A stretch of DNA of 64,000 nt from the NCBI GenBank assembly GCA_965219445.1, contig CBDCNQ010000005.1:992001-1056000 (forward strand), in the 5' to 3' direction. Position 1 is the stretch's first letter. Each line of letters begins with the position of its first letter. The notes under the pieces are model-generated. The model did no database searches and was not told the origin of the DNA. It saw only the letters and a list, made by a program, of their open reading frames with translations. This DNA is from Longimicrobiales bacterium (GTDB lineage: Bacteria > Gemmatimonadota > Gemmatimonadetes > Longimicrobiales > Gaopeijiaceae). The position numbers and the translations under genes were made by a program. Shown in pieces: positions 31,289 through 31,423 of the stretch.

Positions 31289-31423
31289 ACAGGGACACCA
31301 CCGCATCGAGATCCGGCGACTGGATGACACAGTAGGCTATGCAGCACCCCCCTGGAGAGCCGAACGAAGCGATGGGCCACAGAGTCCCAGTATAGAAGGA
31401 TAGTTCCCGCTCTTGGAGCGGAG
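31289..31423 (+). ncRNA. Orphan homologue of the IS110 3' non-coding (bridge/seek) RNA
   Basis: About 90 nt near-identical to 40168-40250; no transposase nearby. Confidence 0.7.

Follow-up and report, generated by a model that had tools for sequence, protein, structure and literature searches.

Does a stretch of IS110 guide RNA gene that lies without a transposase upstream of a TonB-dependent receptor gene still act as a guide, or is it a scrap of a lost element? The question was raised by positions 31289-31423 of the window, the whole 64,000-nt stretch of Longimicrobiales DNA analysed here (genome G000), about 9 kb from an IS110 element. The original prediction took this segment for an orphan guide RNA with a conserved donor loop and a different target loop, being either a deletion scar or a standalone guide that could redirect the cognate recombinase.

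The resident IS1111-type element and its bridge RNA family

The resident IS1111-type element was placed at 38822-40419 (plus strand) by Pfam matches and mapping of its ends. Its transposase (38910-40031) carries PF01548 and PF02371, a DEDD plus Transposase_20 recombinase, and the element has a short left end and a long right end holding a two-loop RNA. The right end reads CCCCATAGAAG at 40409-40419, CATAGGGGC and GCCCCATAG form a sub-terminal imperfect inverted repeat, and the ends join through an AAG/AGG core. The intact bridge RNA was assigned to 40109-40253 (plus strand) on the basis of its fold, a covariance model score of 159.5 bits and guide-flank covariation, with target guides at 40124 and 40162 and a donor guide at 40220.

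Pattern scans yielded 81 loci of this family, 37 of them from genomes (mostly records of Gemmatimonadota or Longimicrobiales) and 44 from metagenomes. A consensus computed with RNAalifold folded 25 transposase-linked copies into two loops. The guides also followed the insertion flanks: the left target guide agreed at 4.36 of 6 positions against 3.11 after shuffling (0/5000 shuffles; 25 pairs), and the right one at 5.77 of 8 against 4.72 (0/5000 shuffles; 35 pairs), with related copies among the pairs not being independent. The top-strand guide comes first in the family, which is the order described for IS1111 seekRNAs, where it precedes the bottom-strand guide (PMC11187229; PMC11208160). The two-loop fold, the guides tracking the flanks and the guide order therefore identify a true bridge RNA family. 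Two loci with target-loop duplications (L058 and L100) were left out of the bridge RNA model, L003 duplicates L054, and loci of the unpublished genomes G115 and G186 underlie none of the conclusions.

Several further features of the element were observed. The resident IS inserts into the end of another element (GAGCTAGGATCAAAG^GGTGTGTAAAA) at 38810-40640 of the window and at about 21 other places in G000; judging from the start of its ORF, we take this host element to be IS256-like. Most copies are composites with the host element and differ in their outer flanks, and the same arrangement was found in G228 and G116; the host IS may carry the whole composite along as it spreads. At 38824-38826, the window copy is missing one left-end base present in other copies, through either mutation or an assembly error. 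Tandem repeats of the right end, including the bridge RNA, occur at G000:C5:1612325-1613253, L057 and L042, and at their joints the core of the right end meets either the 3' end of the element's transposase gene or DNA of its own target loop, making self-targeting by half-match possible. One IS copy at G000:C4:1171704 (minus strand) is followed by a sequence resembling the start of a group II intron. Finally, a left-end-only remnant of a sister element lies at G000:C2:661546-661601 (minus strand), with a GGATAGG flank that is commoner in the clade.

IS homology is confined to 90 nt

In a blastn search, window positions 31334-31423 (plus strand) matched the non-coding region 3' of the resident transposase at 88.9% over 90 nt (E 5e-25). 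The proposed recurrence of an IS110 guide RNA at 31289-31423 thus stands for these 90 nt and falls for the 5' remainder. Genome G000 contained 25 matches to the IS non-coding region, comprising 24 IS-type copies and the remnant. On a right-end family profile of 424 positions, the remnant aligned at 160 to 243 only, from 31333/31334 onward, and its left boundary is the AGG by which the 3' target guide matches the core. Together with the covariance model (66.2 bits, compared with 72.9 for the allele in genome G283 and 159.5 for the resident IS), these results define the remnant as the 3' 60% of an IS1111-type bridge RNA gene, containing the 3' arm of the target loop, the donor-binding loop and the terminal hairpin.

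The donor-binding loop (31357-31406, plus strand) was delimited by the RNAalifold structure, the model alignment, spacing counts and the G283 and X11 alleles. It retains the inner stem and a guide matching the IS end, with one mismatch in the closing stem. The resident IS has the same right-end guide, ATAGAAGG (31392-31399 in the remnant), and 42 nt of the loop match that element exactly, which counts against the remnant being debris. The terminal hairpin (31407-31423, plus strand) has a loop of 7 nt instead of 6, and homology ends there.

As the original prediction had noted, neither transposase nor IS ends accompany the fragment: no transposase remnant, and hence no degenerate transposase adjoining it, was detected within 28.5-34.5 kb (best tblastn E 0.91), and the same interval held no IS ends or other IS pieces. 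The possibility that the DNA to the right of the remnant holds decayed IS ends or a circle junction was also considered and found no support in the family profile. An Rfam search of the window gave 0 matches.

The supposed target loop is leader DNA of a surface-protein gene

Positions 31270-31333 are 92% identical over 64 nt (E 3e-20) to G296:C5:33801-33864, which is the leader upstream of an Ig/LRR surface-protein ORF, and this match ends on the last base before the AGG of the remnant. In G296, the scaffold motif reads differently at the matching leader, AGG is absent at the corresponding junction position, and the bridge RNA covariance model had no match at the leader or elsewhere in the genome. 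Segment 31270-31333 is foreign DNA, a piece of a G296-type gene leader, and therefore does not constitute a new target loop. The adjoining positions 31239-31270 resemble G377 (91% over 32 nt, E 1e-5). The region around the remnant is a patchwork of leader fragments holding a 90-nt IS scrap.

The 5' scaffold (ACAGGGACA..GCATC), which had been considered conserved, lies in this foreign leader, and its likeness to the family is marginal, being equalled by 418 and 643 of 20,000 random genome windows (p ~0.02-0.04). The 26-nt interior, interpreted as a different and shorter target loop, is likewise within the G296-type leader DNA, and its likeness to family target loops is of the chance kind, matched by 1941 of 3000 random 26-mers. 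Target loop interiors measured 45-46 nt in 73 of 77 measurable family matches (8 of the 85 matches were unmeasurable). The invariant inner stem of the family loop is absent from the orphan, which does not show the two guides around a conserved inner stem at a fixed length that make up a target-binding loop.

The flank was also searched as a possible broken gene and gave 0 Pfam hits in six frames and no homologue. A 26-nt match inside a kinase-like ORF of G053 was treated as chance. An AGG-bounded insertion with an empty site was likewise considered and rejected; among 314 genomes, the right flank was not found outside G000 and G283. That neither an empty site nor a source for the right flank turned up counts against debris.

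Lesions and folding of the remnant

The remnant was compared with 27 distinct transposase-complete copies. Where the lost target loop has left its two 3' stem arms, the spacer separating them is 6 nt, compared with 1 nt in 27/27 copies; these counts define a 5-nt insertion at 31344-31348 (plus strand), which is 2 nt shorter in run X15. The 7-nt loop of the terminal hairpin occurs in 0/27 complete copies. The donor closing stem contains a C-A mismatch at 31361/31402, with the G of this pair lost in 1/27 copies; a search for compensatory stem changes, suggested as a check, found none, and this pair is left uncompensated. In the window allele, the spacer before the donor guide is 3 nt rather than 2, and a spacer of 3 was found in 0/27 complete copies. 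This extra base is seen in the window alone (G283 and X11 are canonical, and X15 has no cover there) and is therefore unconfirmed. The donor loop of the G283 allele, with canonical spacing and a single lesion, counts against debris. Indels differ among the carriers of the remnant. Over the 135 nt, a single substitution and a single indel separate the window allele from that of G283, which leaves too little divergence for a test of selection.

Basal target-stem probabilities were predicted at 0.0 for the orphan and 0.81-0.99 for the IS. The donor closing stem was predicted at 0.0 in the remnant, compared with ~0.7 in the full IS RNA and 0.14-0.21 in the 3' part of the IS; since the IS's own 3' part reaches only this level, folding is weak evidence. 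The fold of 31289-31430 had a z of -0.14.

A receptor cassette shared by two genera

The TonB-dependent receptor gene (27918-31123, minus strand; PF00593, PF07715 and PF13715) probably starts at a GTG near 31123; its open frame extends to 31250, and identity with homologues stops at about 31110-31167. The predicted antisense position of the remnant, between a putative promoter and the receptor gene, was confirmed. The motif itself (TTGACG-17-CATGGT; 31467-31522, minus strand), which was read by eye and points through the remnant to the receptor, is promoter-like only, having been missed by a sigma-70 scan, and its function is putative. The 56-nt promoter-like module has copies at 31467-31522 (minus), 16671-16726 (plus), C5:1620860, L094 and G007, and fronts Ig/LRR surface-protein genes as well as this receptor in several genera.

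The receptor, the remnant and a BCCT transporter form a mobile cassette (26843-34532) that is common to the window and G283, a member of another genus, at 98.6% identity over 7695 nt (88 mismatches). The segment 31150-31470 was present in 2/401 genomes of the order (E 1e-26) and in 0/11 congeners, and the remnant is single-copy, occupying the same site in both G000 and G283. The other 27 of the 29 loci examined were receptor homologues (67-90%), and 0/27 contained the remnant. Upstream of the receptor homologue of G228, at a distance of about 200 nt, lies a complete family IS in the same orientation, whose flanks mark it as an independent insertion. The cognate IS is present in both carriers of the remnant (24 and 6 copies), which counts against debris. 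Of the sampled words, 76-95% were present in each of 15 sequencing runs (DNA or untyped; 7 studies). Viral contigs gave 0 matches and plasmids no match.

The window as a whole (1-64000) is island-like, with several tyrosine integrases, a relaxase, a coupling protein and type IV secretion genes. It also contains an AbiU2 HEPN gene (35046-35753), many IS types and a second, broken IS110 at 40912-41601.

Transposase-free copies elsewhere

A search for transposase-free copies was among the suggested checks, and 10 of the 81 loci from two collection scans are of this kind. Their breakpoints are scattered: on the profile, starts range over 17-168 and ends over 205-423. Because the donor loop served as the search anchor, frequencies of donor-only and target-only relics are not comparable. 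Profile position 243, after the terminal hairpin, is the end of three independent relics (window 31423, L063 and L064), and this coincidence was counted against debris. Six loci in other genomes (L064, L070, L075, L132, L158 and L160) are transposase-free yet complete two-loop bridge RNAs (136-178 bits). They are better candidates for trans-acting guides than the window remnant.

Redirection and expression

IS110 insertions at sites fitting the orphan loop, another suggested check, were not found in G000. None of 25 left-end motif matches has a fitting flank (none ends CAGTAGG): 22 have the resident target flank, 1 is an exact guide match, 1 is the left-end remnant of a sister element and 1 is a chance match in a gene. 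Similarly, 0/12 of the target strings implied by the orphan segment occur in the genome. The remnant was not found bounded by IS ends at several sites, as in a non-autonomous IS110 module of the ssr9 or MITE kind.

RNA runs X16 and X18 had no contig over the remnant, which at a depth of ~3 and with strandless contigs does not imply silence; X16 covers 30874-31090 at depth 2.9, a 217-nt piece of the receptor gene, and X18 covers 31526-31646. No plus-strand promoter pattern was found upstream of the remnant. If transcribed, it is most likely read in antisense as part of the receptor leader.

Origin of the remnant and alternative explanations

We conclude, with a probability of roughly 0.88, that the remnant is non-functional debris from an IS1111-family element closely related to the resident IS. 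Leader DNA is fused to the AGG, both IS ends are lost, the indels are drift-like and the fragment was transferred with the cassette, all in support of the deletion scar that the original prediction had offered as one option. The conclusion is based on the foreign origin of 31270-31333, whose last base directly precedes the AGG, on profile homology confined to 160-243, and on lesions that are rare or absent in 27 complete copies, uncompensated and accompanied by indels differing among carriers. Moreover, transposase-free scraps with scattered ends are ordinary in the clade (10/81), 27 receptor homologues are without the remnant, only 2/401 genomes of the order carry it, and no sense promoter was found. 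The whole family IS upstream of the G228 receptor homologue, in the same orientation, also argues for debris, as do half-match recombination and partial circles, reported for IS110 in two studies (10.64898/2026.08.31.748434; 10.64898/2026.08.14.744561).

A sister of the resident IS would have inserted in the leader region of the receptor gene, and later trimming would have spared only the part from the AGG to the terminal hairpin. On the left, the break may be a half-match event made by the transposase, because the target-guide DNA equals the left target plus core and is thus a half-match for the element's own RNA. An ordinary deletion would also suffice, and since G296 has no AGG at the junction, it is equally possible. 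The remnant would then have drifted while hitchhiking with the receptor cassette.

Among the alternatives, a donor-loop-only trans RNA, transcribed from the plus strand, could load the resident transposase and either promote excision and donor-donor recombination of the 24 IS copies or titrate the enzyme. The donor guide is that of the resident IS, the G283 allele keeps canonical loop spacing, and the cognate IS is present in both carriers; in addition, IS621 is reported to undergo both excision and insertion in vitro with the donor loop alone, and read-through transcripts were functional too (PMC13626964). This explanation is nevertheless very unlikely: the closing-stem mismatch is uncompensated and the stem predicted at 0.0 (a weak folding test), a search for a sense promoter found none and the neighbour upstream has the opposite orientation, orthologues do not extend beyond one cassette, and a single copy would face 24 native sources of the same loop. 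If it were true, the common 3' end of the three relics would be that of a retained functional unit, and RNA-guided transposition would be under a cassette- or host-level control carried between genera.

Exaptation on the antisense strand as a cis-regulatory element of the receptor leader, such as an attenuator, is highly improbable. The remnant does sit between the promoter-like motif and the start codon, and the cassettes of two genera as well as both DNA runs examined retain it, but the antisense leader folds no better than shuffled sequences (z 0.45), Rfam gave no match and the 27 homologous receptor genes are without it.

A standalone full bridge RNA whose reprogrammed miniature target loop redirects the recombinase, as first proposed, is barely credible and already largely refuted. 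In its favour, CAGGG/CCCTG and GCAT/ATGC could pair around a 6-bp hairpin and the 5' likeness is nominally significant, but the segment is a foreign gene leader with a 26-nt interior, no invariant inner stem, basal stems predicted at 0.0 and no fitting insertion or target.

Relation to known systems and implications

Like the parent element, IS1111 bridge RNA or seekRNA genes are described (PMC11208160; PMC11187229) as lying in the right end behind the transposase, with two loops, the top-strand guide first and guides that covary with the insertion flanks. The remnant keeps the donor loop of this design, whereas target loop, transposase, ends and any sign of expression are absent. It thus derives from an IS1111 bridge RNA yet is not a functional one, because it has no target loop.

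The orphan ssr9 modules of ISPpu9 are similar in being transposase-free RNA gene copies from an IS110 element, located away from it; according to PMC12288879, they are multi-copy, expressed, bounded by recombination boxes, able to circularise and not bridge RNAs. The remnant, in contrast, is single-copy per genome and has no ends. Partial circles and half-match insertions of IS110 elements resemble the remnant in comprising less than an element and in having one edge at a core that matches a guide, which in the remnant is position 31334. They were observed directly (10.64898/2026.08.14.744561; 10.64898/2026.08.31.748434), whereas the remnant offers a fixed junction only, and its route is an inferred one. 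The split, donor-loop-only bridge RNA of IS621 has the same architecture as the remnant, although it is engineered, studied in vitro and of the IS110 group (PMC13626964), while the remnant is natural, IS1111-type, carries a stem mismatch and is known from DNA. No natural donor-loop-only bridge RNA was found in the literature searched, including passages of 10.64898/2026.10.21.760802, whose supplements could list such loci.

As debris, the remnant matters little in itself. It provides a caution that a lone donor loop beside chance-complementary DNA can mimic a reprogrammed guide. The analysis also produced a good sampling of an IS1111 clade whose guides have been reprogrammed in nature, including a lineage directed at the end of an IS256-like element. 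Should a donor-only RNA be expressed from this locus and prove active, the engineered split bridge RNA would have a natural equivalent, and IS110 movement a new mode of regulation.
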